Of a DNA stretch of 64,000 nt, positions 3,274-31,023 are shown piece after piece. The notes under the pieces were generated by a model, which had not been told where the DNA came from, searched no databases, and saw only the letters and a program-made list of their open reading frames with translations. A program made the position numbers and the translations under genes. Each line of letters starts with the position of its first letter. The first letter of the stretch is position 1. The DNA is from Deltaproteobacteria bacterium (lineage in GTDB: Bacteria; Desulfobacterota; Desulfobacteria; Desulfobacterales; JAFDMD01): contig JAFDMF010000013.1 of NCBI GenBank assembly GCA_019306065.1, positions 12,324 to 76,323 of the forward strand, read 5' to 3'.

Positions 3274-4434
3274 ATGAAAAAAATCAATCTTGATCATATA
3301 TCTGTAAACCCAATGCCGCCCAAAGTTCAGGATGCGATGATAAAAGCAATAAAACAAAACTACGGAAACCCCTCCAGCTTAAACGCCGGCGGCGAACAAG
3401 CCGCGGAAGTTTTGGAAAACGCCCGCGGACAGGTCGCCAAACTTATAAACTGCAAAAACAATAAAGAGGTGATATTTACATCCGGCGGAACCGAATCGGC
3501 AAACCATGCAATAAAAGGAATAGCCTTTGCAAATGCAGAAAAAGGAAAACATATAGTAACTTCAAACATTGAACACAGCTCCGTAATCAGAAGTATAAAA
3601 CGCTTAACCCAGCTCGGATACAAAGCAACCTCCGTATCCGTAGATAAAAAAGGAAGAGTCAACCCTAAAGACATAAAAAAAGCGCTAACAGACGAAACAA
3701 TACTCGTATCCGTAATGCACGGAAACAATGAAATCGGAACAATACAGCCAATAGAAGAAATAGCCAGAATAACAAAAGAAAAAAAAATACCCTTCCATTC
3801 CGACGCAGCGAATACCGTAGGAGTAATACCGATTGACGTTCAAAAACTCGGAGCGGATATATTAAGTTTTGCTTCAAACCCGTATTACGGACCAACCGGC
3901 GTAGGCGGGCTATATATCCGAAGAGGCTTAAATATATGGCCAATGTTAGACGGAGGCATACAGGAAAAAAACAAACGCGCAGGAACCGAAAATTTAATCG
4001 GAATAATAGGTATGGGAGCCGCCGCAAAACTCGCAATGGAAAAAATGGATAAAAGAAGCGAACATCTTAAAAACCTTAAAAAACTTCTTATATCCGAACT
4101 GCCTTCATACATAGACGAATACATAATAAACGGAGACCCGGAAAACAGCCTTCAGAATCTAATATCTGTAAGCGTAAAATACATCGAAGGGGAAAGCATA
4201 CTATTAATGCTTGAAGATGCAGGCTATATCGTATCTACTCGTTCCGCATGCGCCACAGGTTCTTTGCGCGCATCCCATGTGCTTCTATCCATAGGATTAA
4301 AACATGAAGACGCTCAGGGAACAATCGTGATAACTCCGGGAATCGAAAATAAAAAAGAGGATATAATCGGCTTTCTTAAAGCTTTAAAAAAAATAGTAAC
4401 AACATTAAGGGAAATATCGCCACTTTATAAATAA
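3274..4434 (+). CDS. NifS/IscS-family cysteine desulfurase homologue lacking the PLP-binding lysine
   Basis: Has NNEIGTIQP, HSDAANTVG and the SACATGS active-site Cys loop. The SxSGHKxYGP motif reads SFASNPYYGP instead. The ATG at 3274 has SD taggag; the track start at 3229 is probably too early. Confidence 0.75.
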   Translation: MKKINLDHISVNPMPPKVQDAMIKAIKQNYGNPSSLNAGGEQAAEVLENARGQVAKLINCKNNKEVIFTSGGTESANHAIKGIAFANAEKGKHIVTSNIEHSSVIRSIKRLTQLGYKATSVSVDKKGRVNPKDIKKALTDETILVSVMHGNNEIGTIQPIEEIARITKEKKIPFHSDAANTVGVIPIDVQKLGADILSFASNPYYGPTGVGGLYIRRGLNIWPMLDGGIQEKNKRAGTENLIGIIGMGAAAKLAMEKMDKRSEHLKNLKKLLISELPSYIDEYIINGDPENSLQNLISVSVKYIEGESILLMLEDAGYIVSTRSACATGSLRASHVLLSIGLKHEDAQGTIVITPGIENKKEDIIGFLKALKKIVTTLREISPLYK

Positions 4435-4800
4435 AACTTCGCTTTCTTTTTATAAGCAAGCGAGGTTTTTAATATCGGTTTTTTTAAGATGGTTATTAAA
4501 AAAAAATTTTATTAAGTTTATTTTTCCATTCTCCCTCTTCTACAAATTCCAATTCTATTTTTTTATAATTATTTTGTCCTCCGGGAAGAGCCGTCAATTC
4601 GTTTTGTTCAATAGGAAAGTCAAGGCTTTTGATATATCCGAGACTTTTTCTATCCAGTTTGTTTAATTTATGTTTGCCTCTTCATTTAATATATTCATCT
4701 TCAAGGTTATAACCGTTTGTATTAGCAATATATCTATTTAATGTCGCAAAATTTTTAATAGCAAAATATAAAGGATACAAGGAGGATGCTATTTTTTAAA
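4432..4800 (-). pseudogene. gene fragment without start codon and with an in-frame TGA (4682-4684), unknown family
   Basis: Minus-strand frame reads ...FAIKNFATLNRYIANTNGYNLEDEYIK*RGKHKLNKLDRKSLGYIKSLDFPIEQNELTALPGGQNNYKKIELEFVEEGEWK... It has no ATG and no SD. Confidence 0.3.
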
Positions 4801-4967
4801 TTTTTACGTAAAAAATTAAAAAGTAACGTTCCGATTTAAAAAAATAGCGTTATTTTTAAAAGTTAGCATATAGGCAGAATATTTATACGCAAATAAACTT
4901 TTTACATTTTATAAGCTAACATAAACAGATAAAACGCCCATTATTAAAGATATTTAATCACAAAAAA

Positions 4968-5065
4968 GAATGATTAATTTTGTTGGATAACAAAGAAATT
5001 TGTTCGTTTGCAAGGCAATGCAAAATTTTAGCGCAACGCCGAAAATGAGCAAAATAGAAAATTGC
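4968..5065 (+). repeat. family-2 element, partial copy D, upstream of gajA
   Basis: aatgattaattttgttggataacaaagaaatttgttcg...acgccgaaaatgagcaaa shares the left end and internal blocks with copies B and C. Confidence 0.5.
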
Positions 5066-5131
5066 GCAAAGGTCTTACATTTTTCTTTTAGACTATTTAT
5101 TCTGTTTTTCATTCATTTAAAAGGAAACATA

Positions 5132-7201
5132 ATGAAAATTACAAAAATTAAAGTTAAAAACTACAGGCTATTAAAAAATTTTTCTATTGATCTGGAAGAG
5201 GAGCTGTCTTTAATTGTCGGAAAAAATAATTGCGGAAAAACTTCCTTGTTATCAATAATGAATAAATCTATAAATTCGGATAAATTTTTATTCGATGATT
5301 TTAATTTAGATTTTAAAGCCGAATTAGAAAAACTAATTGAAAAACATATGTCAAAGGAAACAGAGAAAGAATATAAGCCGGTTGGCATAACTTTAAAATT
5401 ATTTATTGAGTATAATGAAAATGACAATCTTGCTAATATTAGCAAATTTATGATGGATTTAGACCCGGATAATAAAACCATAGTTCTTTTATTTGAATAT
5501 ATTTTGACGTTAGATAAGCTTAAACAGTTACGAGAGGATTTTAAGAAATTTAAAAATAGTAATCGCGATTTAGATTACTTTCTTCAAAAAAAACATTCAA
5601 ATTATTTTCGCGTATGTAAAAAAACAATCGAATTTAACATTCAAGATAAGAAAGAAAATGAGGACGTTTTTATTGACTTGAAAAAAGAAGAAAAAGCGCT
5701 CAAAGATGTAATTAATTATCAATGTATTAACGCCGATAGGGATGTTTCCAATAAAGAATCCGGCAAGCCTTTATCTCTGCTATCCTCAAAAATTTATAGA
5801 AAAATAGAAGCCGATGAAAGACAAAAAAAGGGAATTGAAGGTTTTAAAAACGCTTTGAGCAGCACGGATAAAGAATTAGGAAAAATTTATGAAAATATAT
5901 TTCAGGATGTAATAAAAAAAGTTAAAGACTTTGGAGGAATCAAGCCGGATGATACAAAAATTAAAATAACTTCAACATTACAGCATAAAGAACTGTTAGA
6001 GGGGAATACAACTGTTATGTATGAGCATGACGACAAGCATGATTTGCCGGAAAGTTATAATGGATTAGGCTATATGAACCTAATAAGTATGATTTTTGAG
6101 ATAGAAATATTATTGAATGAATTTAAAAAAAAGAAAGACGAAAAACCTGCGGATATTAATATACTTTTTATTGAAGAGCCGGAAGCTCATACGCACCCTC
6201 AAATGCAGTATATATTTATCAACAATATAAAAACGTTATTAAAAGACGGAATAAGTCGAGACGATGGAGAAAAAAGAGATTTGCAGTATATTATTAGCAC
6301 TCATTCTTCTCACATTGTAGCGGAAAGTGATTTTGATGACATCAAATACTTAAAAATAGAAAACAATGGCGTAATAGCTAACAATTTAAAAAATTTGAAA
6401 GAGGAATATAAAGACGAACAACAAAATTATAAATTTTTAAAACAATATCTAACTCTTCATAGGGCGGAATTGTTTTTTGCAGATAAAGCAATCTTTATCG
6501 AAGGAGATACCGAAAGAATTCTACTGCCGGCAATGATGAAAAAAATTGATCAGGATGATCCTAAAAACCCATTGCTTTCTCAAAATATATCAATCATAGA
6601 AGTTGGGAATTACTCTCAAATTTTTGAAAAATTCATTGATTTCATCGGGGTTAAATCTTTAATTATTACTGATATAGATTCAGTGACGGGCGATATAAAA
6701 AAATGTAGGGTGGCGGACAAGGACGCAACAATTACAACTAACGCTTCTTTAAAATTCTTTTACGGATCGAATAAACTTGAAGATTTTAAATGTGTTGCAT
6801 TGGAAAATATGGCGCTCAAAAAAAATTCCAAAAAAAAATGGGTTAAAAATAAAAACGGGCATTTGCTTTGCGTATATCAAACAGAAGAAGAGAATTCAAA
6901 AAAAGAAAAATATCATGCAAGAAGTTTTGAAGATTCTTTTTTTCATATAAATCGTCAATTTATTACTGATAATATTGATAATAAAAATAATTTCAAAAGT
7001 TTAAAAAATAAAAACTGCCTTAAAGACACAAGTAAAGACGCTTACGATCTATCAGAAGAATGTATAAATAAAAAACCGGCGTTTGCTATAGAGATTCTAT
7101 TAAATAGCGAAACTGACGATAAAGGAAAACAATTTACTAACTGGAAAATACCGGATTATATTAAAAAAGGATTATTATGGTTGAAGAAAGATCAAAATTA
7201 G
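5132..7201 (+). CDS. gajA: OLD-family ATP-dependent endonuclease (ABC-type ATPase + TOPRIM), Gabija GajA-like
   Basis: Starts MKITKIKVKNYRLLKNF. Walker A is GKNNCGKTS and Walker B is ILFIEEPEAHTHPQ. TOPRIM motifs are IFIEGDTERILLP and IITDIDS. The track start at 5000 falls in a repeat element; ATG 5132 follows SD aaaggaaa. Confidence 0.8.
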   Translation: MKITKIKVKNYRLLKNFSIDLEEELSLIVGKNNCGKTSLLSIMNKSINSDKFLFDDFNLDFKAELEKLIEKHMSKETEKEYKPVGITLKLFIEYNENDNLANISKFMMDLDPDNKTIVLLFEYILTLDKLKQLREDFKKFKNSNRDLDYFLQKKHSNYFRVCKKTIEFNIQDKKENEDVFIDLKKEEKALKDVINYQCINADRDVSNKESGKPLSLLSSKIYRKIEADERQKKGIEGFKNALSSTDKELGKIYENIFQDVIKKVKDFGGIKPDDTKIKITSTLQHKELLEGNTTVMYEHDDKHDLPESYNGLGYMNLISMIFEIEILLNEFKKKKDEKPADINILFIEEPEAHTHPQMQYIFINNIKTLLKDGISRDDGEKRDLQYIISTHSSHIVAESDFDDIKYLKIENNGVIANNLKNLKEEYKDEQQNYKFLKQYLTLHRAELFFADKAIFIEGDTERILLPAMMKKIDQDDPKNPLLSQNISIIEVGNYSQIFEKFIDFIGVKSLIITDIDSVTGDIKKCRVADKDATITTNASLKFFYGSNKLEDFKCVALENMALKKNSKKKWVKNKNGHLLCVYQTEEENSKKEKYHARSFEDSFFHINRQFITDNIDNKNNFKSLKNKNCLKDTSKDAYDLSEECINKKPAFAIEILLNSETDDKGKQFTNWKIPDYIKKGLLWLKKDQN

Positions 7202-9063
7202 AGCCTGAAGTTCAAAAAATATTTAAACATATAGATAATGGCGATAATTTTTTGCTGAGCGGCGGCGCAGGCAGCGGAAAGACCTATTCATTAGTGCAGG
7301 TTGTCAAACAGGTAATATCGAAAAATCCGACCGATAGAATTGCCTGTATGACCTATACAAATGCCGCTGTAAGAGAGATTGAAGAGAGAGTAACCTATAA
7401 AAACTTATTCGTATCTACCATTCACAATTTTTTGTGGGATAATATAAAACATTTTCAGAAAGTATTAAAAAATTCTTTGATTAATTTAATAAATGACGAG
7501 GAATCTAAAATCAAAAACCCGGAAGATGCGCCTGTGCTGGAATCTTATTTTGATCAATGTAAAGAAGGCATACAATACAAAGAATATTTAAAGTTAAAAG
7601 ATGGAATTATCTCTCATGATGAAATTTTGATATTGGCTAATTATGTCTTTAAAAACTATCCTAAACTTTGCGATATTCTAAAGGATAAATTTAAATTTAT
7701 CTTTATTGATGAATATCAAGATGCCGATAAAAATTTTATCCAAATCCTTCTTATTCATTTAAAACAAAGCAAGAAACAAAATATAATCGGTTTTTTTGGC
7801 GACGCTATGCAATCTATTTATGATAACGGCGTCGGCGATTTGGATCTTTATAAAGGCGAAGTAAAAGAAGTAAAAAAAAAGCAGAATAGGAGAAACCCGG
7901 AATTAATTATTGAGCTTGCTAATAAACTAAGAACCGATGGAATTAAACAAACCAAGTCAGAGGATACCAACGCTCCGAATATGATGAAAAATAGCAGGAT
8001 TAAAAAAGGTAATATTAAATTCTATTACTCTCAAAATAAAGATAAAGATAAAGATATAGAAAGAGTAAAGCAGAAGACAGGTTGGGACTTTGAAGATGCT
8101 AAACAGACAAAAATACTAAATTTAACTCATAATTTAATAGCTCCGAAAGCGGGATTTTCTAATCTCATGGAAATATATGATAAAGATAGAATCATAAAAT
8201 ATAAAAATAGAATAAAAAAATATATTAAAGATAAGGATATTAAAGATGATTTTTCCGAAAAAACTTTTGGAGAAGTAATTGAGATTTTATCAGACAAAGT
8301 TAAACCAACGAAGGCAATGAAAGATTTTATTAATTCTAATCAAGAATTATATAAATCTGCGAAAGGATATAAGTACCAATCTTTTGCTAAAATATATTTA
8401 GATAAAGAATCTTTAATTGACGACAAAAAGCAAGATAAAGACGAGGAGAATAAAAAAGGTTCTAAAAGGGACGATTTAATAAAGCATCTTTTTAAGATCC
8501 AAAATAATATCTCATTTTACAATGCAAAACAATTCAACGACTTTTTAAGAGCAACGGAATATAAAATAACTTCAATTCAAGATAAAAAAGAGTTAAAAGA
8601 CAACATTATTGAATTAACAGAAGTCGGAGATAAAACCATAGAAGAGATTATAAACAAAGCCGATGAATTTGGAATTTGTAAGAAAGACGATAAGCTTGCA
8701 AGATTTATATCCGAAAAAGAATATCTTTATAATCGCGTAAAAAAAATAAAATTTTTCGAGTTTCAAAAACTATACAATTATCTTGAAGGCTACACGCCGT
8801 TTTCTACGCAACATAAAGTTAAAGGGACAGAATTTGATAATGTTTTAGTAATTTTGGATAATGGCGGATGGAATCATTATAACTTTAAAGGATTATTTGA
8901 AAATAATGCTTCCAATAGCGTTAGAAAACGTACCGAAAAAATATTTTATGTTTGTTGCACTCGCGCAAAAAAAAATCTATCCGTATTTTTTAATAGCCCA
9001 TCAGAAGCAGTAATCACAAAAGCGAAAGATTGGTTTAGAGAAAAGAATGTCCGCGAAATATAA
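7177..9063 (+). CDS. gajB: UvrD/Rep-family SF1 helicase, Gabija GajB-like
   Basis: Walker A is SGGAGSGKTYS; motif II is FIFIDEYQDAD. Later helicase motifs are KVKGTEFDNVLVIL and YVCCTRAKKNL. Overlaps the upstream nuclease gene by 25 nt. Confidence 0.8.
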   Translation: MVEERSKLEPEVQKIFKHIDNGDNFLLSGGAGSGKTYSLVQVVKQVISKNPTDRIACMTYTNAAVREIEERVTYKNLFVSTIHNFLWDNIKHFQKVLKNSLINLINDEESKIKNPEDAPVLESYFDQCKEGIQYKEYLKLKDGIISHDEILILANYVFKNYPKLCDILKDKFKFIFIDEYQDADKNFIQILLIHLKQSKKQNIIGFFGDAMQSIYDNGVGDLDLYKGEVKEVKKKQNRRNPELIIELANKLRTDGIKQTKSEDTNAPNMMKNSRIKKGNIKFYYSQNKDKDKDIERVKQKTGWDFEDAKQTKILNLTHNLIAPKAGFSNLMEIYDKDRIIKYKNRIKKYIKDKDIKDDFSEKTFGEVIEILSDKVKPTKAMKDFINSNQELYKSAKGYKYQSFAKIYLDKESLIDDKKQDKDEENKKGSKRDDLIKHLFKIQNNISFYNAKQFNDFLRATEYKITSIQDKKELKDNIIELTEVGDKTIEEIINKADEFGICKKDDKLARFISEKEYLYNRVKKIKFFEFQKLYNYLEGYTPFSTQHKVKGTEFDNVLVILDNGGWNHYNFKGLFENNASNSVRKRTEKIFYVCCTRAKKNLSVFFNSPSEAVITKAKDWFREKNVREI

Positions 9064-9104
9064 TATTTTAAAAAAACAAACTATTTTGTTTTTTTAAAAA
9101 GCTT

Positions 9105-9133
9105 GCTCAAATTTTAATCGCAAAAATTTGAGC
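9105..9133 (+). terminator. stem-loop downstream of the helicase gene (10-bp stem gctcaaattt/aaatttgagc)
   Basis: Perfect inverted repeat read in the sequence. No clear T-tract follows. Confidence 0.35.
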
Positions 9134-9364
9134 ATAACGCCAAAAGTTCGCAGAATATCAATTTATACGAAAGTCTTTTCTATTATATTTTTAATTGCCC
9201 GCGCCTCCTAACTTTTTCTCATAATCTATAGTTATCGGTTTGTAATTTTTTTTATTTTGATTTATAAAAAAATCTTATAAAAAAATACAGGCTGCATAAA
9301 CTCAAACGCAAAAACCGAAATAAAAAATTTTATCCGAAAATATTTTAAAAAAAAGAGGTATATT

Positions 9365-9541
9365 ATGGCATCTTCGGTTGAAGAACAGATTCTTAGAGCT
9401 TCAAAAGAAATAGCCGTAAAATTTATTGAAACAGGGCGTATTTCGCCTACCAATTTTACGGAGCATTTTGAAGTAATATATAATACGATTAACAAAACCG
9501 TTTTGCCGGACGGCAAAAAATTGGATTGTAATATCGAATAG
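9365..9541 (+). CDS. small hypothetical protein (58 aa, below ORF-track cutoff)
   Basis: Translation: MASSVEEQILRASKEIAVKFIETGRISPTNFTEHFEVIYNTINKTVLPDGKKLDCNIE. SD agagg lies 8 nt upstream. Preferred over the antisense track ORF 9262..9516. Confidence 0.4.
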   Translation: MASSVEEQILRASKEIAVKFIETGRISPTNFTEHFEVIYNTINKTVLPDGKKLDCNIE

Positions 9542-9580
9542 ATTGATTTTTTTAACTTTTATAAAAAGAGAGGAATAATA

Positions 9581-11716
9581 ATGAGCGCCCTTTTATTTGA
9601 AATAGGAACCGAAGAGATTCCCGCCGGTTATATAAAACCTGCGCTTGAAACTATGGCGTCTGATCTTATAAAAAGTATGGACGACGTTAGAATCGAGCAT
9701 GGAGATTATAAAGTCTATGCTACTCCGCGAAGACTCGGAATAATAGTAGATAATGTTTCGGCAAAACAGAAACCGCTTGTAACCGAATTAATAGGTCCTC
9801 CGGCTTCCGTAGGATTTGACGAAAAAGGCAAGCCTACGATTGCGGCTGAAAAATTTGCGGAAAAAGCGGGCATAAAAACGGATAAGATCAAAACGGTTAA
9901 TACTGCCAAAGGAGCATATCTTGCGGCGAAAATAACCGAAAAAGGCGGTTTATCCGTCAATATTTTCAAAAAGATACTTCCCGATCTTATTTATAAAATA
10001 CCTTTTCCGAAATCTATGAGATGGTCAGATATGAATATAGAATTTGCAAGACCTATCCAGTCTTTAACCGCTATGTTAGGCGGTGAGAAGATTCCTTTTT
10101 CCATAGAAGGAAGAATAGATTCGGATAGATATATATACGGGCATTTTTTTATGAAGCCTCAAAAAATTAAACTTGCGGATGCAAAGGATTATCCGGACGC
10201 CTTAAAATCGGCTTATGTTATGGCGGATATGAACGATAGAAAAAAATTGGTTTTAAAATCAATTCAAAAAGAAGCTAAAAGCGTAGGCGGCAAAATTATA
10301 GAAGATGAAGAACTTTTAGATATAGTTACAAATTTGGTAGAGATGCCTTTTCCCGTAGTAGGAAGTTTCGATAAAAAGTTTTTAACACTTCCTGACGAAA
10401 TACTTATAACCTCTATGCGCGAACATCAGAAATATTTTGCCGTAGTTGACGAAAAAGGCAAACTTATGCCGCATTTTATAGCGGTTAATAATACCAAAGC
10501 AAAAAATATGAAGCTTGTTGCAAACGGACACGAAAGAGTTATACGGGCTCGTTTGGAAGATGCAATCTTTTTTTATAACGCGGATTTAAATATAAAGAAT
10601 GAGACTCGAATTCAAAAACTTAAAAAGGTTTTATTTCAGGCAAAACTCGGCAGCATGTATGAAAAAACCGAAAGGGTTAAGCAGATCGCCGAATTTCTAT
10701 CCGATACTTTAAAAATTAATTCGGATTCAAAAAAATCTTTATTAAAAGCCGCGCAGTTATGTAAATCTGATTTGGTAAGTAATGTTGTGGGAGAATTTCC
10801 GAAACTTCAAGGAATTATGGGAAGGGTCTATGCAAAAGTTTCAAAAGAAAAGGCGCTTGCGGCAAATGCCATAGAGGAGCATTATATGCCGATATATTCG
10901 GGAGGAAAGCTTCCCAAATCAAAAGTCGGAGCTATCCTTGCAATAGCCGATAAAATCGATTCCATATCCGGAGTATTCGCAGCAGGACTTATACCTACAG
11001 GCGCATCCGATCCGTATTCTTTAAGAAGACAGGGAATTGGAATATTACAGATTATATTAGATAAAAAATTCTCATTTTCGTTGAAAAAACTGATAGCCGA
11101 AAGTTTAAGCAAATATAAAGGCGGACCGGAACTTGATACGAAAGAGCAAACTTTAGAAAAGATATATGCTTTTTTAATCGTTAGAATGGAAAATATTCTG
11201 ATTGAAAAAGGTTTATCCAAAGATGTTGTTTATGCGGTTACCTCCGCTGCAAGCGACGATATACTTGCAGTTTTTAATAGAACAAAAGCATTGGAAGATT
11301 TTAAATTAAAACCGGATTTTTCATCATTTGTGGAAACCTTCAAACGCGTGGCAAACATCATAAAAAAGGCGAATTCGGATAAAATACCGTCCGAAGTTGA
11401 CAAATCCTTATTTGAAAAAAAAGCGGAAGCGGATCTTTTTGACGCCTATAATAAAACCTTTGCAAAAACCGACAAAAATTTTAAAGCTGGAAATTATTCA
11501 AAAGGGCTTGCCGAAATATCCTTATTAAAGCCGAATATCGATTTTTTATTTGACAAAGTAATGGTGATGACTGATAAAAAAGGGTTGAAATTAAACAGAC
11601 TCGCTCTTTTAAAATCAATAGCCGTTCTATTTGAACGGGTAGGAGATTTCTCAAAACTAGAAAAATTTCATAATCAAAATATAAACAGAGGAAACGTCCA
11701 TTATCACAAAAAATAA
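9581..11716 (+). CDS. glyS: glycine--tRNA ligase beta subunit
   Basis: N-terminus LLFEIGTEEIPAGY and overall length are typical of GlyS. No glyQ lies upstream in this window. Confidence 0.9.
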   Translation: MSALLFEIGTEEIPAGYIKPALETMASDLIKSMDDVRIEHGDYKVYATPRRLGIIVDNVSAKQKPLVTELIGPPASVGFDEKGKPTIAAEKFAEKAGIKTDKIKTVNTAKGAYLAAKITEKGGLSVNIFKKILPDLIYKIPFPKSMRWSDMNIEFARPIQSLTAMLGGEKIPFSIEGRIDSDRYIYGHFFMKPQKIKLADAKDYPDALKSAYVMADMNDRKKLVLKSIQKEAKSVGGKIIEDEELLDIVTNLVEMPFPVVGSFDKKFLTLPDEILITSMREHQKYFAVVDEKGKLMPHFIAVNNTKAKNMKLVANGHERVIRARLEDAIFFYNADLNIKNETRIQKLKKVLFQAKLGSMYEKTERVKQIAEFLSDTLKINSDSKKSLLKAAQLCKSDLVSNVVGEFPKLQGIMGRVYAKVSKEKALAANAIEEHYMPIYSGGKLPKSKVGAILAIADKIDSISGVFAAGLIPTGASDPYSLRRQGIGILQIILDKKFSFSLKKLIAESLSKYKGGPELDTKEQTLEKIYAFLIVRMENILIEKGLSKDVVYAVTSAASDDILAVFNRTKALEDFKLKPDFSSFVETFKRVANIIKKANSDKIPSEVDKSLFEKKAEADLFDAYNKTFAKTDKNFKAGNYSKGLAEISLLKPNIDFLFDKVMVMTDKKGLKLNRLALLKSIAVLFERVGDFSKLEKFHNQNINRGNVHYHKK

Positions 11717-11868
11717 TAATGAAATTTTAGCGGATAATAAAATAACTTGTTCAAGGCGAATCAAAATTTTAACCGCGAGACTACTCATATATTTAGAGGA
11801 TTAAAATTTTGATCCAATGCAGAAATCGGGCAAATTGTAAAGTTATCTAACGAAATTTAAATAGAGGA
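11717..11868 (+). repeat. family-2 element, copy A, forming the hdrA 5' leader
   Basis: aatgaaattttagcggataa...atcaaaattttaacc...ggattaaaattttgat...gttatctaacgaaatttaaatagagg ends 12 nt before ATG 11881. Confidence 0.65.
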
Positions 11869-11880
11869 AATTAATTAATT

Positions 11881-14800
11881 ATGTCTAAAGATATAATAGG
11901 CTCCGTAGTAGTTGTAGGAGGCGGAATAGCCGGCATGCGTTCCGCTTTGGATTTGGCAAATTCCGGATATTATGTTTATCTTGTAGAAAAGTCTTCGTCA
12001 ATCGGCGGAGTAATGTCTCAACTTGACAAAACTTTTCCTACTAACGACTGCGCTATGTGAATTATCTCGCCTGTACTGGTCGAGGTCGGCCGGCATTTAA
12101 ACATAGAGTTATTAACTTTAAGCAAGATAAAAAACATAAAAGGAGAAGCGGGGAATTTTGACGTAGAAGTTATAAAAAAACCTAGATATGTAGATGAATC
12201 AAAATGCGTAGGCTGCGGATTATGCGCTGAAAAATGCCCAAAAAAAGTAACAGATACATACAACATGGGGCTTCAAAAAAGAAAAGCCATATATGTTGAG
12301 TATGCTCAGGCAGTCCCTTTAAAATATGCAATAGATGCAGATAATTGTATATATTTTCAAAAAGGGAAATGCGGAGCATGTAAAAAATTATGTCCTGCCG
12401 AAGCTATTGATTTCGAGCAAAAAGAAGAAACGATTACCATCAACGCAGGAGCGATTATATTTTCAAGCGGCTTTAATCCTTTGAATCCTGCCGATCTGGA
12501 TTTATATCAATATAATGACCGTCCCAATGTTATTACTTCTATGGAAATGGAAAGAATATTATCTGCATCTGGCCCTACAGGCGGGCATCTTGTAAGACTT
12601 TCGGACAAAAAAGAGCCTAAAAAAATAGCGTGGCTACAATGCGTAGGCTCAAGAGACATGAATAGATGCGGCAACCTTTATTGTTCCTCCGTATGTTGCA
12701 TGTATGCCATTAAAGAAGCGGTAATAGCAAAAGAGCACTCAGAAGAAGGGTTAGACTGCGCTATATTCTATATGGACATCAGAACCCCTGGCAAAGAATT
12801 TGAAAAATTCTATAATAATGCAAAGGAAAAAGAGGGCGTCCGCTTTATAAAAAGTAGAATCCATTCTATAGAACATGTGGTAAATACGGATGATCTTAAA
12901 GTTCGTTATTTGGATGAAGATAATAATCTGCAAGGCGAAATTTTTGATATGATCGTTTTGTCCGTAGGTATGGAGACGCCTAAAGATATTGTAAAACTTT
13001 CTCAAAAGCTTGGAATCGAACTTTCCAAAGGAAACTTTTGCAAAACTTCTACATTCAATCCTTTGGAAACATCTATTGAAGGCATATTGGTAAGCGGCGC
13101 GTTCGGCGGCCCAAAAGATATACCTCAATCGGTAGTATATGCTTCAGGAGCGGCTTGCGCTGCAGGCGAAATTTTAAATTCCGCGCGAAATACTCTTACC
13201 AAAACAGTCGAACCTGTTCCGGAAACAAATGTAATAGGCGAAAGACCCAGCATAGGGGTTTTTGTTTGCAAATGCGGCAGCAATATAGCCGGCGTAGTTG
13301 ATGTTAGCAAAGTTGTGGAATATGCGGCAAAACTTCCTTTTGTAGATTATGCGGCGGAAAATATCTATTCCTGCTCTCAGGATAATCAGGATGGTATGGC
13401 GCAGCTTATAAAGGAGAAAGGATTAAACAGAGTTGTAGTCGCAGCCTGCACCCCAAAAACTCATGAGCCTCTATTTCAGGAAACCCTTATATCCGCAGGT
13501 TTAAATAAATACCTATTTGAAATGGCAAATATAAGAAATCATAATTCTTGGGTTCATAAAGACAGTCCCGAACTTGCCACCCTAAAAGCTATGGACCTTG
13601 TTCGTATGGCGGTTGAAAAAATTTCTATTGCAAAACCGTTGTCCGAAGCGGAGCTTGAAGTAAATCAGAACGCAATGATTATAGGCGGCGGCGTAGCCGG
13701 AATAAGCGCGGCTTTAGGGCTTGCCAATCAGGGCTACGATACATATCTGATAGAGAAAAGCGGCGAGTTGGGCGGAGAAGCAAAAAAAATATTTAAAAGC
13801 GCAAATAACGAAAACATTCAAAAAGAGCTTTTATCTCTTATTGAGGCGGCTCAAAACAATAATAAGCTTCATATCAGGCTTAACAGCAGTATCGTAAATG
13901 TGGAGGGCTTTGTAGGAAACTTTAAAACCGTAATAGCTTCCGATAATAAAGAGGAAAGCATAGAACACGGCGTATCTGTAATAGCTACAGGCGGAACCGC
14001 TTTAAAGCCTACCGAATATCTATACGGAGAGGATAAAAGAATAATAACAAGCTTAGATCTTGATAAAAAATTTATTAATAACGATAACTCTTTAAAAGGT
14101 CTGAAATCTGCGGTTTTTATTCAATGCGTAGGATCAAGAGAGCCGAATCGCCCTTACTGTTCCGGAGTATGCTGCACGCATTCTATAACTAACGCATTAG
14201 AGCTTAAAAAAATAAACCCTGATATGAATATATTTATCCTATACAGAGATATAAGAACTTACGGAGAAAAAGAATATTTATATCATCAGGCAAGAGAAGC
14301 CGGAATTATCTTTATAAGATACCTTGCAAGCGACAAGCCGAATATTAAAATCGAAAACGGAAAAATTTCGGTGACCGTCCAGGACACCTCTTTAAATCAA
14401 TATCTTGAAATGGAAGCCGATCTTGTAACTCTTGCTTCCGCCATAGTTGCAAATAAAGATCAGAAGCTTGCGAAATTCTTTAAAATCCAGGTTAATGAAG
14501 ACGGATTTTATATAGAAAAACATGCAAAGTTAGGTCCCTGCGAGTTTGCTACGGACGGGGTATTTTTATGCGGTTTGGCTCATTATCCGAAACCCATAGA
14601 CGAATCTATAGCTCATGGCAAGGGAGCCGCCGCAAAAGCTTTAACCCTTCTTGCTAAAAAGAAAATACGCACGTCAGGAACAATAGCGGATGTCGAGCCT
14701 CTTAAATGCAGTTCTTGCGGAGTATGCGTTTCTATATGTCCTTATTCAGCGCCCTCTTTTATACCGGACGACGCAAGATTCTTTGCCGGAAAGGCTCAGA

Positions 14801-14931
14801 TTAACCCCGTATTATGCAAAGGATGCGGATTATGCGTGGCATCTTGCAGATCCGGCGCATTACGATTAAAAGGATTTGATAATGATCAGATATTTGCCCA
14901 AATAAACGCCGCATTTGAAGAGGCGGCATAA
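11881..14931 (+). CDS. hdrA: large tandem HdrA-like flavoprotein, selenocysteine-containing (UGA at 12058-12060)
   Basis: ATG 11881 gives [19 protein letters not shown]...[19 protein letters not shown], in frame with track ORF 12265..14931. A second GxGxxG ([15 protein letters not shown]) lies mid-protein. There are multiple Cys clusters and a C-terminal 2x[4Fe-4S] motif. Confidence 0.85.
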
Positions 14932-14975
14932 AAAAAAATTTTTGCGGGAAAAAATTAAATTAAAAGGAGAATAAT

Positions 14976-15404
14976 ATGTCTGACTGGGAGCCGAAAATTT
15001 TGGCTTTTTTATGTAACTGGTGCAGTTACGGCGCAGCGGATCTTGCGGGAGTAAGCAGAATGCAGTATCCTCCTAACTTTCGGATAATAAGAATACCTTG
15101 TACCGGACGAATGAGCCCTAAATTTATTTTGTCCGCTTTTAAGCAGGGGGTGGACGGGATATGGGTATCAGGCTGACATCCCGGAGAATGTCATTACCTG
15201 GAAGGTAATTATTATGCGCGTCGTAAATTTACTTTATTTAAAGGACTTTTGGAACATATAGGCATTGAAGAGGAACGGCTGCATTTTTCGTGGGTATCTT
15301 CGGCAGAATCCACCAAATTTATTAAAGTAGTAAATGAAGTAATTTCCTCGGTAAAAAGTTTAGGACCTAATCAAAGATTTATAAATAGAATTAAGGCAGC
15401 GTAA
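14976..15404 (+). CDS. mvhD: MvhD/FlxD-type [2Fe-2S] subunit, selenocysteine-containing (UGA at 15174-15176)
   Basis: Track ORF ends ...GIWVSG then UGA. The frame continues HPGECHYLEGNYYARRKF...WVSSAES to TAA at 15402. The UGA aligns with the Cys of the conserved SGCHxGxCHY motif. Confidence 0.85.
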
Positions 15405-16355
15405 ATGGTAGAATATATTAGTAAAATACAAAAAATATCAAAAAAAATACTCCAAGATGGCAAGGTTGATATAATAATAGGTTTTTCAAGCGGAAGCTTG
15501 CCTATGGCAAGCAGACCTTCTTTTATAAAAAGCCCCGAAGATGCAGACAAATTAATATTTGACGGCAATTGCGGAATCAATCTTGCAAATTATTTGGCAG
15601 GCAGAAAAGAGAAAATAGGTATAATAGCAAAAGGCTGCGATTCTAGAAACATAGCGCAGCTTATAGTTGAAAATAAAATAAAAAGAGAGCAACTTTTTAT
15701 TATAGGCGTTCCATGCTTTAAAATGATAGATAAAAGAAAAATCTCTCTGTTATTTGAAGATGAGATTACCCAAGTAACCGAAGTAGGCGATAAGGTTATA
15801 GTAAAAGGAAAAGCTAAAGAAAAAACATTTAACCGAGAAGATCTGTTGCAGGCAAACTGCATTACCTGCACACATCATAATCCAGTTATATATGACGAAT
15901 TGGCGGGCGAGCTAATAAAAGAGCCTGATCAAAAAGACGGGTATGAGGACGTTAAAAAAATAGAGGCTATGAGCTCGGATAAGCGCTGGAGCCATTTTAG
16001 CGAAATGTTATCCGCATGTATCAGATGTTATGCATGCAGAGATGCATGCCCTTTATGCTATTGCCCCACATGCTTTGTTGACGAAGCTGCGCCGCAATGG
16101 GTTGGAAAAAGCGCGGATAATCAAATAGACGTAAAAACGTTCCATATATTGCGGGCGTTCCACTGCGCGGGAAGGTGTACCGATTGCGGAGCATGCGAAA
16201 GAGCCTGTCCTATGAGTATAAAAGTAAGGGAATTTACAAGAAAACTCAATTCCGACGCTATGCGGCATTACGAATGGGAAGCGGGATTAACTACCGATAA
16301 ACGTCCCTTATTGGATAATTTTAGAGTAAACGACTATCAAGATTTTATAAAATAA
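15405..16355 (+). CDS. Fe-S cluster protein (FrhB/FlxC-like, 2x CxxCxxCxxxCP)
   Basis: Motifs CIRCYACRDACP and CTDCGACERACP. The start abuts the mvhD stop. Confidence 0.7.
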   Translation: MVEYISKIQKISKKILQDGKVDIIIGFSSGSLPMASRPSFIKSPEDADKLIFDGNCGINLANYLAGRKEKIGIIAKGCDSRNIAQLIVENKIKREQLFIIGVPCFKMIDKRKISLLFEDEITQVTEVGDKVIVKGKAKEKTFNREDLLQANCITCTHHNPVIYDELAGELIKEPDQKDGYEDVKKIEAMSSDKRWSHFSEMLSACIRCYACRDACPLCYCPTCFVDEAAPQWVGKSADNQIDVKTFHILRAFHCAGRCTDCGACERACPMSIKVREFTRKLNSDAMRHYEWEAGLTTDKRPLLDNFRVNDYQDFIK

Positions 16356-16370
16356 AAGGCAAAACCAATT

Positions 16371-17329
16371 ATGAAGCTCGTAAGTATAAATAAAGAACTT
16401 TTAAAAATTCGGATAAAATAGACATAAATAATCTGACGTTTTTAAATACCCGTCTTTCGCCCAAATCTTTAGTTTTTCCTCAAACCGAAAAAATGTTCTC
16501 TTATACTACCGATACAAACAGCGAAGACTGCAATATAATCAAACCTATAAATAAAAAAAATGTAAAACAGGCTATTCTCGGCATAAGACCATGCGACTCC
16601 GCATCTTTCGGAATAGTTGAAAAAAATTTTGATACCGAAGAGTATAAAGATCCCTTTTGGATAAATTCTTATAAGGCTACAACATTTATAGGGCTTGCAT
16701 GCGATAATCCGGATTCTACATGCTTTTGCACAACCGCAAATTCCGGTCCTTTTGACGAAAAAGGGCTTGATATACTTTTGATAACTTCAGGCGATTCCTT
16801 TATCGGCAAAATTCTTACCGAAAAAGGAGAGGAAGCCGCAAAGATTGCGGGCTGGACAACAGAAGCGCCCGCCAATTCTGTTTCGGCGATAGAAAAACAA
16901 AAAAAAGAGGCAGAATCTAAAATAAGCTCCTCTATTTCGACGGATAAAATAAAAAATAAAGATACGTTAGAACTATATAACGCATCTTTTTGGGAAGAAG
17001 AGGCGTTTGCCTGTATCAACTGCGGAACATGCGCTTATGTATGTCCGACATGCTGGTGTTTCGACATACAGGATGAAATTTCCGATAAAAAAGGAATCCG
17101 TATGAGAAACTGGGATAGCTGCATGTTTCCCCTTTTTACTCTGCACGGTTCCGGGCATAACCCCAGAGATTTAAAATATCAGAGAGTCCGACAAAGATTT
17201 ATGCACAAGCTTAAATATTATCAGGATAAATATAAAAGCGGAATCCAATGCGTAGGATGCGGTCGATGCATACGTCTTTGCCCTGTAAATATAGATATAC
17301 GCAGCATATGCGATATAATGAATTCGTAA
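16371..17329 (+). CDS. AsrA / sulfhydrogenase-beta-like 4Fe-4S protein, apparently frameshifted near its 5' end
   Basis: Has SPKSLVFPQTEKMF, GIRPCD, CINCGTCAYVCPTC and CVGCGRCIRLCP. The conserved N-terminal region (16394-16492) has no start codon. ATG 16371 is in another frame and stops at 16419 after the A-run. Confidence 0.65.
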
Positions 17330-17392
17330 TAACAATTAGAAACAAAATAAAAAAGATCAGATATAATAAAACAATTAAGATGGAGTACAAAA

Positions 17393-18238
17393 GTGCAGAA
17401 TCCATATTTACCATACCCTGTTCGTATAGACGACATAGTAACCGAAACAGAAGATAAAAACTTAAAAACATTTAAATTCGTATTTATAAACCCCGAAGAG
17501 GAAAAAAAATTTTCTTATAAAGCAGGTCAATTTGCGGAACTTTCTGTTACGGGAAAAGGGGAGATACCCATAGGAATAGCCTCTTCTCCTACGGAAAAAG
17601 GATTCGTAAAATTTACGGTTAATAAAGTAGGACTTATTACAACCCATCTCCATTCTATGAAAAAAGGGGATATCATGGGAATTCGAGGTCCTTTGGGCAA
17701 TTATTACCCATGGGAGCTTCTCGAAGGAAAAAATATTGTTATAATAGGCGGAGGATTCGCTTTTACAACCCTTAGATCCTCCATAATATATATGCTTGAG
17801 CCCTCAAACCGAGACAAGTTTAAAGAGATTAATGTAGTATATGGCGCAAGAGTCCCCGGTATGCTTTTATACAAAGACGAGCTTAGCGCGTGGAAAAAGC
17901 GGGATGATATTAATATGCACATAACCGTAGATTCTACCGATGATCCGAATTGGAAATATAACGTAGGATTTGTTCCCGCCATAGTAGGCGAAAAAGTTCC
18001 CAAAGGAAACAAAGATACTTATGCCATAGTATGCGGGCCTCCGGCTATGATTAAATTTACCCAGCCCGTATTAGACCAGCTCGGTTACAGCCACGACAAC
18101 ATAATAATGTCTTTGGAAAATAGAATGAAATGCGGAATTGGAATGTGCGGCAGATGCAACATAGGCGAAAAATTCGTATGCAAAGACGGACCCGTATTTA
18201 CCCTTTCTCAGCTTAATAAAATGCCGAAAGAGTATTAA
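17393..18238 (+). CDS. FAD/NAD(P)-binding oxidoreductase with C-terminal [2Fe-2S] (AsrB / sulfhydrogenase-gamma / FlxA-like)
   Basis: Ferredoxin-reductase-like layout with a CGIGMCGRCNIG...CKDGPVF tail. GTG start preceded by ggag. Confidence 0.75.
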   Translation: MQNPYLPYPVRIDDIVTETEDKNLKTFKFVFINPEEEKKFSYKAGQFAELSVTGKGEIPIGIASSPTEKGFVKFTVNKVGLITTHLHSMKKGDIMGIRGPLGNYYPWELLEGKNIVIIGGGFAFTTLRSSIIYMLEPSNRDKFKEINVVYGARVPGMLLYKDELSAWKKRDDINMHITVDSTDDPNWKYNVGFVPAIVGEKVPKGNKDTYAIVCGPPAMIKFTQPVLDQLGYSHDNIIMSLENRMKCGIGMCGRCNIGEKFVCKDGPVFTLSQLNKMPKEY

Positions 18239-18274
18239 TATGTCATATAGAGTAAAAGTTATTAGAGATATTTT

Positions 18275-18595
18275 ATGTCTCCTGCCGATAATAATATAAA
18301 ATTAATATTACTCGGTTTCGGAGTTGCTTTGTTTAGCGCGTGTATAGGCATTGGAGGCGGAACCCTGCTAGTATCGTTGCTCATGTCTATATTCAATTTC
18401 GATTTCAAAAAAGCGGCGGCTACATCTTTGGCTACTATAATACCAATAAGCTTTACCGGAGCGGTTGTCGGTTCCATAATATCGGGGAATCTTCCGGGTC
18501 CGATAATAAAAAAAATATTCGGTATTTTTTTATTTTTAATAGCATTAAATTATATAATCGAAGCTTTTTACCGAAAACACGGGTCAGTTATTTAA
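18275..18595 (+). CDS. short TSUP (TauE/SafE)-like membrane protein, about half normal length
   Basis: Motif GIGGGTLLVSLL, typical of the TSUP family. Only 106 aa. Confidence 0.45.
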   Translation: MSPADNNIKLILLGFGVALFSACIGIGGGTLLVSLLMSIFNFDFKKAAATSLATIIPISFTGAVVGSIISGNLPGPIIKKIFGIFLFLIALNYIIEAFYRKHGSVI

Positions 18596-18660
18596 CTCCC
18601 GTAGAAAAAAGCCGTATTCTATTTAATTATAGCATTGGATTAAAAAAAGGCGTAACAATT

Positions 18661-19377
18661 ATGGATTTATATAACAGATTAAAAAAAGCTTTGGAAGATA
18701 AGATAAAAGAATATAATCTTTCCGGGCAAAATATCAGCATTCGATGCAAAATTCTTTCGGCTTCAGAGGCTATAGGAAAGCCGTCGGATGAAGATTATCC
18801 CATAATAAAAGGAAAAGAGGTAATGGTAGAAGCCGTTTTTAAAGGCGCAAAAGGACAGGCTTTTACCGAAGAGTTTGAAAATACCGATTACTCCGTAGAA
18901 GATTTACTAAAAATAAGCTTAAATTCAAATAAAAAAAGAGCAAGCTTTATAGCCGCATTAAACGCCATTTTCAGACATCTTAAACTTTGCGATAAAACGG
19001 TTCATTGTAAAGATAATGAACCTAAAGAATGCGCGTGCGGTTTATCCGATATTGGACGCGGTTATAATAATATTTTACTTATAGGGTATCAGCCCAGATT
19101 TCTTGAAGCGCTTATAGCGGATCATAATGTAAGAGTTTTGGATATGGATAATGATAACATAGGCTCAAAGCGTTTCGGCATATTAATCGAATCCCCTGAT
19201 ATAACGAAGGATGCCGTAAAATGGTCTGATTTAATATTTGCCACAGGTTCTACCATAGTAAACGGCACAATCGACAATTTTATCAATAAAAACAAGCCTG
19301 TTACATTCTACGGAGTTACAATTTCGGCTGCCGCAAAAATATTGAATTTAAAAACATATTGTTATTGCGGGCATTAA
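18661..19377 (+). CDS. DUF364-like Rossmann-domain protein (putative metal-chelation family)
   Basis: Internal ATG of track ORF 18340..19377. The upstream part of that ORF overlaps the TSUP gene in another frame. Confidence 0.5.
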   Translation: MDLYNRLKKALEDKIKEYNLSGQNISIRCKILSASEAIGKPSDEDYPIIKGKEVMVEAVFKGAKGQAFTEEFENTDYSVEDLLKISLNSNKKRASFIAALNAIFRHLKLCDKTVHCKDNEPKECACGLSDIGRGYNNILLIGYQPRFLEALIADHNVRVLDMDNDNIGSKRFGILIESPDITKDAVKWSDLIFATGSTIVNGTIDNFINKNKPVTFYGVTISAAAKILNLKTYCYCGH

Positions 19378-19418
19378 TAATTTGATTTTCAGGCTTTAGA
19401 CGCCGGCGGGTTAATTCT

Positions 19419-19857: not shown

Positions 19858-19918
19858 CGATTTTACTGTTTCGCTATCATTCATTTTACAAAAAGCAAGA
19901 ATAAAAAGTTTAATTCGC

Positions 19919-29668: not shown

Positions 29669-29910
29669 TTTTATCCTTTCTTCCGGTTGATATTCAGATT
29701 TTAATATTTTGTCTCTACAGGACTTTTAAATTAGCCTAATATTCCAAATTCTGTCAGGGACTAAATATTTATAGAAAAAATTCTTCATTCCGTTAAATAC
29801 GAAATATCGTAATAATCATTCTTTTTTGTGTCTATAATATAATCATGAACGTTTCCTCTGTTTATATTCAGATTAGATAGCAAATTTGTTGGTTTTTACA
29901 GCTTACAAAA

Positions 29911-29953
29911 ATTTCAATCCTCGGCTTATTAAAAATAAGCCGAGGATTGAAAT
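29911..29953 (-). terminator. Rho-independent terminator after secF
   Basis: 19-bp stem tttcaatcctcggcttatt/aataagccgaggattgaaa, followed by TTTTT on the minus strand. Confidence 0.65.
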
Positions 29954-29988
29954 TAAAATATGATGCCGAAAATAGACAAAGGACGAAG

Positions 29989-31023
29989 TTATGCAACACT
30001 CTTTTTGCCATACATAATTAGTATGGGACTCGCCACAAATATTGAAGAATATGTTCCTACTAACACTCCGATAATCATAGCAAAAGCAAAATCGTGAATA
30101 ATTCCTCCGCCAAATATAAACAAGGAGGTTAAAACAAGCAGGGTCGTAAAAGATGTAAGAATCGTTCTGCTTAATGTTTCGTTAACGCTTTTGTTAATTA
30201 TATTTTCAAAGCTTTCTTTATGATTTTTTTTTAAATTTTCTCTTATTCGGTCAAATACTATTATGGTATCGTTAAGAGAATATCCTATTATTGTAAGAAG
30301 CGCGGCAATAATAGGAAGGGTAAAATCTTTATCTAATATCGAAAATATGCCTACGGTTATAATAACATCGTGTATTAACGCGGCTACAGCTCCCATCGCA
30401 TATTTTAAGCGCAGCAGCCAAAATAGCGTTAAGCTAATGATAAATGCGGCAAGTATAAGAATCGGTATGCCTGTTTTAAAAAGGGATAATCCGTAAACCG
30501 CCCCCATCAAAGCGCCGGCTACAACTCCGCTTAATATCCATTTCAATTCAAATCTACCGGAAATATATACTGTAATAAACAAAATCACAAAAAATATCGC
30601 AAAAAGCGCTTTTTCTCTTAATTCTTTTCCTATCTGAGGACCTACCGCCTCTACCCGCCTTATTTCGGCTTTATTATCGGAAAAGGTTTTTAAAGCATTC
30701 TGAAAATTTGTTCCGAATTCTTCATCTGTTATTTCAGTATTTGCTCTTATTAAAAATTCTTTATCTTTTTTATCTCCGAATTCCTGCACAGAAGATTTAT
30801 CAAAATTTATAGCCTCAAAGACATCATTTATCTCTTGTAGGGTTATGCTTTTTTCAAACTTTATTTGTATGACTGTTCCGCCCGCAAAATCGATTCCCAG
30901 TCTAGGTCCTCCCTTGATAATTAAAGAGGCTATGCCTAATAGTATCATTATACAAGAAACCGCAAAGCCTATTTTTCTTTTTGCTATAAATCCAATATTT
31001 ATATCAGGCTTTATAAACCGCAT
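29989..31023 (-). CDS. secF: protein translocase subunit SecF
   Basis: Multi-pass membrane protein with GIDFAGGT and the conserved SecF C-terminal half. Confidence 0.9.
   Translation of the reverse strand: MRFIKPDINIGFIAKRKIGFAVSCIMILLGIASLIIKGGPRLGIDFAGGTVIQIKFEKSITLQEINDVFEAINFDKSSVQEFGDKKDKEFLIRANTEITDEEFGTNFQNALKTFSDNKAEIRRVEAVGPQIGKELREKALFAIFFVILFITVYISGRFELKWILSGVVAGALMGAVYGLSLFKTGIPILILAAFIISLTLFWLLRLKYAMGAVAALIHDVIITVGIFSILDKDFTLPIIAALLTIIGYSLNDTIIVFDRIRENLKKNHKESFENIINKSVNETLSRTILTSFTTLLVLTSLFIFGGGIIHDFAFAMIIGVLVGTYSSIFVASPILIMYGKKSVA

Follow-up and report, generated by a model that had tools for sequence, protein, structure and literature searches.

Gabija is a widespread system of anti-phage defence and one of the commonest. 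A gene for an OLD nuclease with a UvrD-like helicase gene immediately downstream defines a class 2 OLD, a term synonymous with Gabija (PMC10568477; PMC10781630). Assembly of the nuclease, GajA, with its helicase-family partner, GajB, nucleotide-regulated nicking of DNA and protection against phage have all been described (PMC8136825; PMC10781630; PMC12407980). The Bacillus cereus proteins form a 4:4 complex, which is blocked by the phage protein Gad1 (PMC10781630). GajB acts as a sensor of DNA termini and as a hydrolase of (d)ATP and (d)GTP (bioRxiv 10.1101/2023.05.02.539174), and Gabija of Pseudomonas aeruginosa targets linear DNA ends that lack RecBCD protection (PMC12407980). Here these systems are compared with a two-gene cassette in a 64-kb stretch of DNA (the window) from a Desulfobacterales-type metagenome-assembled genome (accessions MBW1650269/70). 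The cassette is read as a Gabija anti-phage defence system of foreign derivation, comprising a class 2 OLD nuclease (GajA) and a superfamily 1 (SF1) helicase-family protein (GajB), a reading whose probability is put at about 0.88. Its two genes are as follows.

5132..7201, plus strand: gajA, 689 residues, identified from the open reading frame (ORF) listing, PADLOC, Pfam and AlphaFold2/Foldseek
7177..9063, plus strand: gajB, 628 residues, a UvrD/PcrA/Rep-like SF1 helicase-family protein

The initial annotation of the window had described a 689-residue protein with an ATP-binding cassette (ABC) ATPase head and a TOPRIM domain at the C terminus, overlapped by 25 nucleotides (nt) by the gene of a 628-residue SF1 helicase, and had recognized in the pair the GajA/GajB architecture. 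Each of these statements is borne out. The gajA frame runs from ATG 5132 to a stop at 7201, with a ribosome-binding site (AAGGA) at 5121-5125; it is nested in a longer ORF that starts with TTG, and the ATG is preferred because the profile alignments begin there. gajB lies directly downstream on the same strand, overlaps the 3' end of gajA by the 25 nt, and has its own ribosome-binding site (AGGA) 8 nt before ATG 7177. Both genes are intact: they are full-length ORFs, they match their family profiles from end to end, and they retain every ATPase, TOPRIM and SF1-helicase motif tested. Thus, GajA matches PADLOC profile PDLC00079 with an E value of 1.2e-291 over profile positions 1-701 of 702, GajB matches PDLC00135 with an E value of 6.5e-237 over positions 5-602 of 603, and the next-best matches are further GajA and GajB profiles, respectively.

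The domains of GajA are those of an OLD nuclease. Pfam places AAA_15 over residues 1-396 (E 1.4e-65), followed by OLD-like_TOPRIM (PF20469, E 3.2e-15), and the sequence motifs quoted in the annotation are all located. The ATPase carries a Walker A motif (GKNNCGKTS, residues 30-38), a Walker B-like motif (ILFIEEPEAHTHPQ, 344-357) and an H-loop (ISTHSSH, 388-394), all invariant in 33 of the 33 clade members aligned; the TOPRIM motifs are IFIEGDTER (454-462) and IITDIDS (511-517). The annotation had proposed that the TOPRIM catalytic residues be checked by alignment, and they are present. When GajA is aligned by HMMER to the C-terminal region of the Burkholderia pseudomallei class 2 OLD (BpOLD; 6NK8), 'FFADKAIFIEGDTERILLPA' pairs with 'FFARGIIFVEGDAERFLIPA' and 'IITDIDS' with 'VLTDLDP'. 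From this alignment it follows that E457, E461, D514 and D516 correspond to the BpOLD metal ligands E400, E404, D455 and D457, as defined by Schiltz et al. (PMC6755086); the four GajA residues are invariant in the same 33 clade members. The 6NK8 sequence alignment ends before the helical domain. S598-F-E600 and K648, also invariant in the 33 members, would nevertheless make likely counterparts of the helical-domain catalytic residues T506, E508 and K562 of BpOLD.

A rival reading assigns the pair to another system built on an OLD or ABC-type ATPase, namely a class 1 Old, PARIS (AriA/AriB), Septu (PtuA/PtuB) or a class 3 OLD of the retron Eco8 type. The AriA profile does match the GajA ATPase (E 5.9e-62), over residues 1-396 only; Foldseek also lists structures of retron Eco8 and PtuA, and there is a weak NCBIfam match to retron Eco8. 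Eight GajA profiles, however, outrank every other family, and the question of assignment to another OLD class, raised in the annotation, is answered by the far lower scores of the other OLD profiles. In PARIS terms, TOPRIM and ATPase are here fused in one polypeptide with no separate AriB, and the partner gene encodes a helicase; for Septu or a retron one would look for an HNH protein or a reverse transcriptase as the partner, and here it is an SF1 helicase. The retron Eco8 match (NF038234) reaches 52 bits against a cut-off of 250, and between positions 4300 and 9700 there is neither a reverse transcriptase ORF nor an Rfam match. Class 1 Old is encoded by a stand-alone gene, whereas here the helicase gene overlaps the 3' end of gajA; the PADLOC Old profile yields an E value of 1.9e-30 versus 1.2e-291 for GajA, and P2 Old aligns to 44% of GajA at 27% identity. 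Membership in any of these other systems is therefore scarcely credible, and the Gabija assignment stands.

GajB is likewise a complete helicase-family protein. Pfam reports UvrD-helicase (E 2.1e-20) together with AAA_19, and the three segments cited in the annotation are found at residues 30-38 (GAGSGKTYS, the Walker A region), 176-184 (FIDEYQDAD) and 591-601 (YVCCTRAKKNL). All seven SF1 motifs can be recognized (I, GAGSGKT; Ia, TYTNAA; II, DEYQD; III, GDAMQSIY; IV, QNRRNP; V, STQHKVKGTEFDNV; VI, VCCTRAKKNL), and they are invariant among four aligned clade members from three phyla. A segment rich in Lys, Asp and Glu (K/D/E) had been remarked upon in the annotation as a long insertion. The segment is present, but it is common to, and partly conserved in, all four aligned clade helicases (for example 'IYLDKESLIDDKKQDK...KKGSKRDDLIKHLFKIQ'); because it is conserved across the clade, it is not an insertion specific to the window copy.

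Among experimentally characterized systems, the Gabija of B. cereus VD045 (PDB 8SM3, 8U7I and 8X5I) shares with the window pair the order of its two-gene operon, an ABC-ATPase-TOPRIM nuclease followed by an SF1 helicase-family protein, as well as the conserved TOPRIM Glu and DxD and the GajB Walker A and DExQD boxes (PMC10781630). An AlphaFold2 model of the window GajA (predicted local distance difference test, pLDDT, 78; predicted template-modelling score, pTM, 0.70) finds B. cereus GajA as its best structural match: chains of 8x5i, 8u7i and 8sm3 take ranks 1-4 in Foldseek with E values of 3e-17 to 3e-15, above structures of the retron Eco8 OLD, PtuA and Rad50. The two nucleases are 17-19% identical, and the template-modelling (TM) score is only some 0.4-0.5, a common value for models with several domains. 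By sequence, the best PDB matches are different ones. For GajA these are the class 1 OLD of Thermus scotoductus (6P74), followed by the TOPRIM regions of the class 2 OLDs of B. pseudomallei and Xanthomonas campestris (6NK8 and 6NJV); the Thermus enzyme outscores the class 2 proteins overall, chiefly through the ATPase region, while the latter provide the best class 2 match to the window TOPRIM. 'FFAxxxIFxEGDxER' and 'TDxD' align residue for residue with these class 2 OLDs, which also have a helicase gene downstream (PMC6755086), but just about 85 residues of GajA can be aligned to them by sequence. For GajB the best sequence matches are PcrA, UvrD and Rep. The remote-homology searches and the fold match thus indicate that the window pair is a genuine yet remote relative of the B. 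cereus prototype. P. aeruginosa PA14 Gabija (PMC12407980) is a system of the same type and the source of the current model in which linear DNA ends without RecBCD protection are the target.

The annotation had also suggested a divergent subtype, the proteins being longer than the prototype. Window GajA and GajB are about 110 and 130 residues longer, respectively, than their B. cereus counterparts; relative to BpOLD, part of the extra length of GajA falls in the stretch from the DxD strand to the putative SxE motif, which is larger by about 33 residues. The remoteness from B. cereus holds. The length is a trait of a large, catalogued clade and is already captured in the PADLOC profiles. At E <= 1e-10, a homology search with GajA yields upwards of 5,697 proteins, of which the best 120 are all about 680-720 residues long, and the paired helicases in the loci examined have 637-645 residues. 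The gajA-gajB pairing is kept in three loci examined (L083, L094 and L095; L numbers denote the loci compared), and the pairs of L083, of Pontibacter plasmid pls1 and of Clostridium butyricum plasmid pCBU1 have the same lengths (688-700 and 637-645 residues) and the same short gene overlap. Matches to the subfamily PDLC00079/PDLC00135 run from end to end of the profiles, and members of the PDLC00135 clade are 54-70% identical to window GajB, the K/D/E-rich region included. Judged by its sequence, then, the window pair belongs to this clade of proteins of about 700 and 630 residues and is no oddity within it: there is no structural difference from other members, and the host (a Desulfobacterales MAG) and the chromosomal position alone differ. 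As an ordinary intact copy in a branch already catalogued, this Gabija matters little by itself. It is, at the same time, an intact and well-delimited member of a very large clade remote from B. cereus Gabija, and hence a reasonable candidate with which to probe how general the mechanism is.

By analogy with the characterized systems, the same mechanistic logic would be expected of the window Gabija. GajA and GajB would assemble as a hetero-oligomer, which is 4:4 in B. cereus, and the GajA ATPase domain would bind nucleotides and so keep the TOPRIM nuclease off at normal levels of nucleoside and deoxynucleoside triphosphates. On infection, the complex would nick or cleave the invading DNA, the proposed triggers being nucleotide depletion and unprotected phage DNA ends that lack RecBCD. 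GajB would then sense the resulting DNA ends and hydrolyse (d)ATP and (d)GTP, reinforcing the response. A caveat is provided by the Burkholderia class 2 OLD, which is closer to window GajA in the TOPRIM region and is a non-specific nuclease (PMC10568477). It is also conceivable, if rather doubtful, that the clade works differently from the B. cereus prototype, with its clade-specific parts forming a distinct sensing or regulatory module, and that the cassette is still exchanged between the sister lineages by recombination. The candidate parts are a beta-rich stretch, about 33 residues longer, which leads from the TOPRIM DxD strand to the helical domain, and the conserved K/D/E-rich block in the 2B-like region of the helicase.

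That the cassette is more AT- and Lys-rich than its neighbours, as had been noticed, is confirmed by windowed composition: its GC content is 0.288, compared with a mean of 0.363 (standard deviation 0.016, minimum 0.327) in 1,025 equal-sized segments elsewhere in the window (z = -4.6), and among the long ORFs gajA and gajB rank lowest in GC and highest in Lys (fractions of 0.146 and 0.153). The nearest homologues, 55-71% identical, are spread over unrelated phyla, with members in Patescibacteria, Gracilibacteria, Saccharibacteria, Sulfurimonas and Bacteroidota. Their surroundings are those of mobile and defensive DNA. A 71%-identical gajAB pair adjoins a type I restriction-modification operon, a resolvase and PIN genes; on the mobilizable Pontibacter plasmid pls1 the genes that surround gajAB are an AbiE toxin-antitoxin pair, a Fic gene and a TaqI-like restriction-modification gene; and on the C. 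butyricum megaplasmid pCBU1 it adjoins an IS3 element. A 36%-identical pair is encoded in a Pseudomonas Pf prophage, and a relative occurs in 432 plasmid records. The pair is absent from 80 glyS loci of related Desulfobacterales (L001-L080). Composition, homologues that hop between phyla, copies on plasmids and in defence islands, and absence from the wider Desulfobacterales support horizontal acquisition, and the annotation's proposal of an acquired defence islet, which it had suggested checking by synteny in relatives, gains by the finding that the pair is neither clade-wide nor of native composition and that relatives have glyQ next to glyS. A narrow group of sulfate-reducer-like Desulfobacterales would have gained the cassette in its common ancestor, directly upstream of glyS and beside a methylase of restriction-modification type that has since decayed.

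The same observations bear on another view, in which the pair has a housekeeping role in DNA repair, as a UvrD/PcrA-type helicase with an accessory nuclease, rather than one in defence. The closest solved relatives of GajB by sequence are indeed PcrA, UvrD and Rep, and housekeeping genes are the neighbours on both sides. Against the NCBIfam cut-offs, however, GajB scores 63 bits where PcrA requires 911 and 56 where UvrD requires 1144, and neither GajA nor GajB falls in a housekeeping equivalog of that database. A foreign composition, absence from the 80 related loci and the occurrence of homologues in defence islands and on plasmids all speak for defence rather than repair, and gajAB is dispensable, because it is broken in the sister lineages considered next. 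A housekeeping role is accordingly very improbable.

The history of the locus can be followed in three closely related lineages. Lineage A comprises the window and a 99.87% identical contig (L091). Lineage B comprises L081, L082, L092 and L093 (GCA_029939135.1 and GCA_029940505.1), with L081 and L093 99.8% identical to each other. Lineage C comprises L086 and L087 (JGI 3300033146); it is collinear with window positions 7061-21086 at 84-86% identity and contains the end of gajA, gajB, a small ORF, glyS and hdrA, and, separately, nifU-nifS with a spacer behind it whose end is formed by the intergenic repeat described below. Gabija-glyS linkage is thus common to lineage C, whereas the lineage B contigs end inside gajB. 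Because it is common to the sister lineages, the cassette is not a strain-specific insertion. Three features of the window are needed to describe what separates the lineages.

4922..5016, no strand assigned: nifS-associated spacer element, matching L087 10953-11049 (81%) and L092 2856-2941 (77%)
5022..5131, plus strand: conserved upstream leader of the cassette, within which lies the right half of a truncated repeat copy (5023-5079)
29681..30002, no strand assigned: other end of the inverted segment, with a full palindromic repeat copy at 29881-30018

The spacer element stays downstream of nifS in both sister lineages. The leader, in contrast, is 96-98.6% identical to lineage B sequence (L081 and L093) that there follows secF, not nifS, and the homology starts exactly at 5022. 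In lineage B, secF (window 30002) is joined to the gajA leader precisely at that position (L093 and L081), and the sequence that adjoins nifS is window 29681->27071, in reverse (L092; the nifS/ODP-flavodoxin junction). L092 and L093 come from one assembly (GCA_029940505.1), so that both reciprocal junctions are present in it. A segment of about 25 kb (5022-30001), with the gajA leader at one end and the spacer that precedes secF at the other, is therefore inverted relative to lineage B. Since two such reciprocal junctions are those that a single inversion yields, the nifS/gajA junction is an inversion breakpoint and not an insertion scar. The first reading of the secF/gajA junction of L081, that the cassette had hopped to a new site, was abandoned because the same assembly holds the reciprocal nifS/ODP junction. 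An insertion between nifS and glyS, as originally proposed, is thus too simple a description on the nifS side; the placement upstream of glyS holds, with a 58-codon ORF in between.

Both breakpoints of the inversion lie in repeat-bearing spacers, and an exact 18-nt inverted repeat is nearby, with one arm at 4959-4976 and the other at 29813-29830 on the minus strand. Recombination between these elements may have been the cause. The 25-kb inversion, with its ends in such intergenic spacers, separates the nifS/gajA from the secF/gajA arrangement. An inversion of this kind can make an older acquisition resemble a fresh insertion between housekeeping genes.

The repeats belong to an intergenic, palindrome-containing family of about 135 nt. 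Full copies are found at 11746-11879, 29881-30018 and 59112-59252 on the plus strand, with another copy at 63343-63417 on the minus strand. Incomplete ones are present at 2130-2168, at 4996-5079, where gajA follows directly, and at 22364-22416. The repeat copy that the annotation saw in the left spacer is the partial copy at 4996-5079, assigned to the family by nhmmer (E 2.6e-4). The element consists of a long palindrome as its core and, behind it, 'AACGCCGAAA..GGCAAA'; it may be REP-like (repetitive extragenic palindromic) or MITE-like (miniature inverted-repeat transposable element), and Rfam recognizes no family in it. In relatives, contig ends fall within copies of the repeat, L087 for instance ending in one. 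Two further roles were considered for the repeats. One as att-like direct repeats flanking the cassette is not supported, the left copy being truncated and the hairpin on the right flank not being recovered by the nhmmer family model; one as a sigma-54 promoter was rejected, the spacing being unsuitable.

In neither sister lineage is the cassette whole. In three independent assemblies of lineage B, gajA has lost 92 nt between two GAAAAACT repeats, directly behind the Walker A codons (L081 7817-7824, L093 and L082; equivalent to window 5243-5334), a frameshifting slippage deletion which yields 'GKTN*' and a 621-residue remainder devoid of the P-loop. Lineage C gajB is split between two frames near residue 317 (L086, about 1048-1135), possibly through an assembly error. 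The three lineages provide a small, clean example of defence-gene turnover: an intact system, a gajA deletion and a gajB frameshift, with a decayed methylase gene adjoining.

Several points weigh against reading the cassette as a working Gabija of known type. The window copy of gajAB is the only intact one among the three lineages, both sister copies being broken. Moreover, the ratio of nonsynonymous to synonymous substitution rates (dN/dS) is 0.48 for gajA against lineage B and 0.64 for the C-terminal part of gajB against lineage C, compared with 0.08-0.16 for flanking genes; together with the broken sister copies, this may mean that selection on the system in this lineage is weak. B. cereus GajA and GajB were not retrieved from the PDB by phmmer with the single proteins (E up to 10) or by hmmsearch with a 33-sequence profile, and no experimental work on any member of the 700/630-residue clade was found in the literature. 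In light of this undetectability by sequence and of the 17-19% identity, mechanistic details from B. cereus (sequence-specific nicking, no ATP hydrolysis and the 4:4 stoichiometry) may not transfer. The helical-domain catalytic residues of GajA are proposed solely on the strength of the invariant S598-x-E600 and K648, and a single-sequence model of GajB (pLDDT 37) is too poor for a fold comparison.

The first of these points would suit a cassette that is a functionally decaying remnant, acquired in an ancestor and since released from selection, Gabija-like and yet inactive now. The 92-nt deletion in lineage B, recurring in three independent assemblies, the split gajB of lineage C, the raised dN/dS and a neighbouring methylase that is already a relic all fit such a course. 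Yet both ORFs in the window are full length and match their family profiles from end to end, the window copy keeps every catalytic and motor motif tested, and the raised dN/dS values stem from comparisons with a broken partner copy. Decay of the window copy is thus considered improbable, and an intact Gabija is preferred.

Synonymous divergence (dS) sets the cassette apart from its neighbours in another way. Over window 5339-9060 it amounts to 0.15-0.19 when measured against lineage B and to 0.27-0.34 for lineage C; the flanking genes give 0.40-0.44 and 0.52-0.68, respectively, so that the cassette values are lower by a factor of two to three. This may reflect a later recombinational exchange or an effect of composition.

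The flanks of the cassette contain the following further features.

4541..4771, minus strand: DNA methyltransferase relic, about 78 of about 450 codons, with no start codon and an in-frame stop at 4682-4684
9066..9134, plus strand: a pair of stem-loops close behind the stop codon of gajB, one of A/U only at 9066-9099 and one of 12 base pairs at 9104-9134
9365..9541, plus strand: conserved 58-codon ORF between the cassette and glyS, beginning MASSVEEQILRASKEIAVKFIETGR...
9581-11716: glyS, downstream of the cassette

The left spacer (4435-5131) is non-coding and has a GC content of 0.264. The annotation's description of some 700 nt of non-coding DNA containing a startless, stop-interrupted gene fragment is accurate, and the fragment, on the minus strand, can be given a name. 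In a library-wide HMMER search its 61-codon downstream part matches a 448-residue protein, P0369 (E 1e-4), and by tblastn the fragment is 45% identical over 78 codons to P0369 residues 189-266 in an alignment that crosses the in-frame stop. Pfam, PADLOC, NCBIfam and PHROGs give nothing for the fragment itself; P0369 falls in the Pfam family N6_N4_Mtase (PF01555, E 1.1e-32). Because P0369 is an N6_N4 DNA methylase, the fragment is taken as an internal remnant of a methyltransferase of restriction-modification type, and hence as a second, dead defence gene beside Gabija.

On the right, the stem-loops that had been reported fold with a minimum free energy of -30.1 kcal/mol, compared with -14.9±2.9 in shuffled sequences (z = -5.25), and a scan for terminator-like sequences flags 9134-9104 on the minus strand. 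Rfam detects no RNA family in 4300-9700 and no T-box before glyS. The protein encoded by the 58-codon ORF is 90% identical to its counterpart in sister locus L086. Near glyS in 80 other loci of Desulfobacterales the ORF is missing, as it is in the other Gabija loci, and it has no match in Pfam, NCBIfam, PHROGs or PADLOC; it belongs to the context of the cassette and bears no sign of membership in Gabija.

The absence of an adjacent glyQ, remarked upon earlier, extends to the whole 64-kb window, which contains neither glyQ nor recO. In 71 of the 75 informative Desulfobacterales loci, glyQ rather than Gabija is the gene directly upstream of glyS, no more than 400 nt away and as a rule preceded by recO and a kinase gene. 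On a contig that encodes a 59%-identical GlyS, glyQ and glyS are separated by four small accessory genes, one of them CopG-like. These accessory genes at the junction in a relative, along with the unlinked glyS here, suggest that the glyQ/glyS junction may be an insertion hot spot.

The window holds other candidate defence genes and repeats. Inside the invertible segment, at 25500-27300 on the plus strand, is a second candidate defence pair, of the HEC-01 type, consisting of a 369-residue AAA_21/AAA_15 ATPase (PADLOC HEC-01A, E 8e-139) and an overlapping gene for a 232-residue DUF4276 protein (HEC-01B, E 7e-68). A short repeat ('...AATTAAGGGATTTCT...') occurs twice upstream of this pair (24989-25223). 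The 'AATTAAGGGATTTCT' repeat recurs in the nifS-distal spacer of lineage C (L087 10736-10847), where it replaces the methylase relic. A low-GC ORF at 57838-58668 on the plus strand (GC 0.295, 276 residues), with a weak match to the PADLOC candidate PDC-S42 (E 6e-5), adjoins a full copy of the 135-nt repeat. Finally, a second repeat family, a GC-rich palindrome (GTAGAGACGTTGCA-TGCAACGTCTCTAC), is found in intergenic positions at 50827-50877, 53472-53522, 56228-56298 and 60895-60950, and is probably a terminator- or REP-like hairpin.

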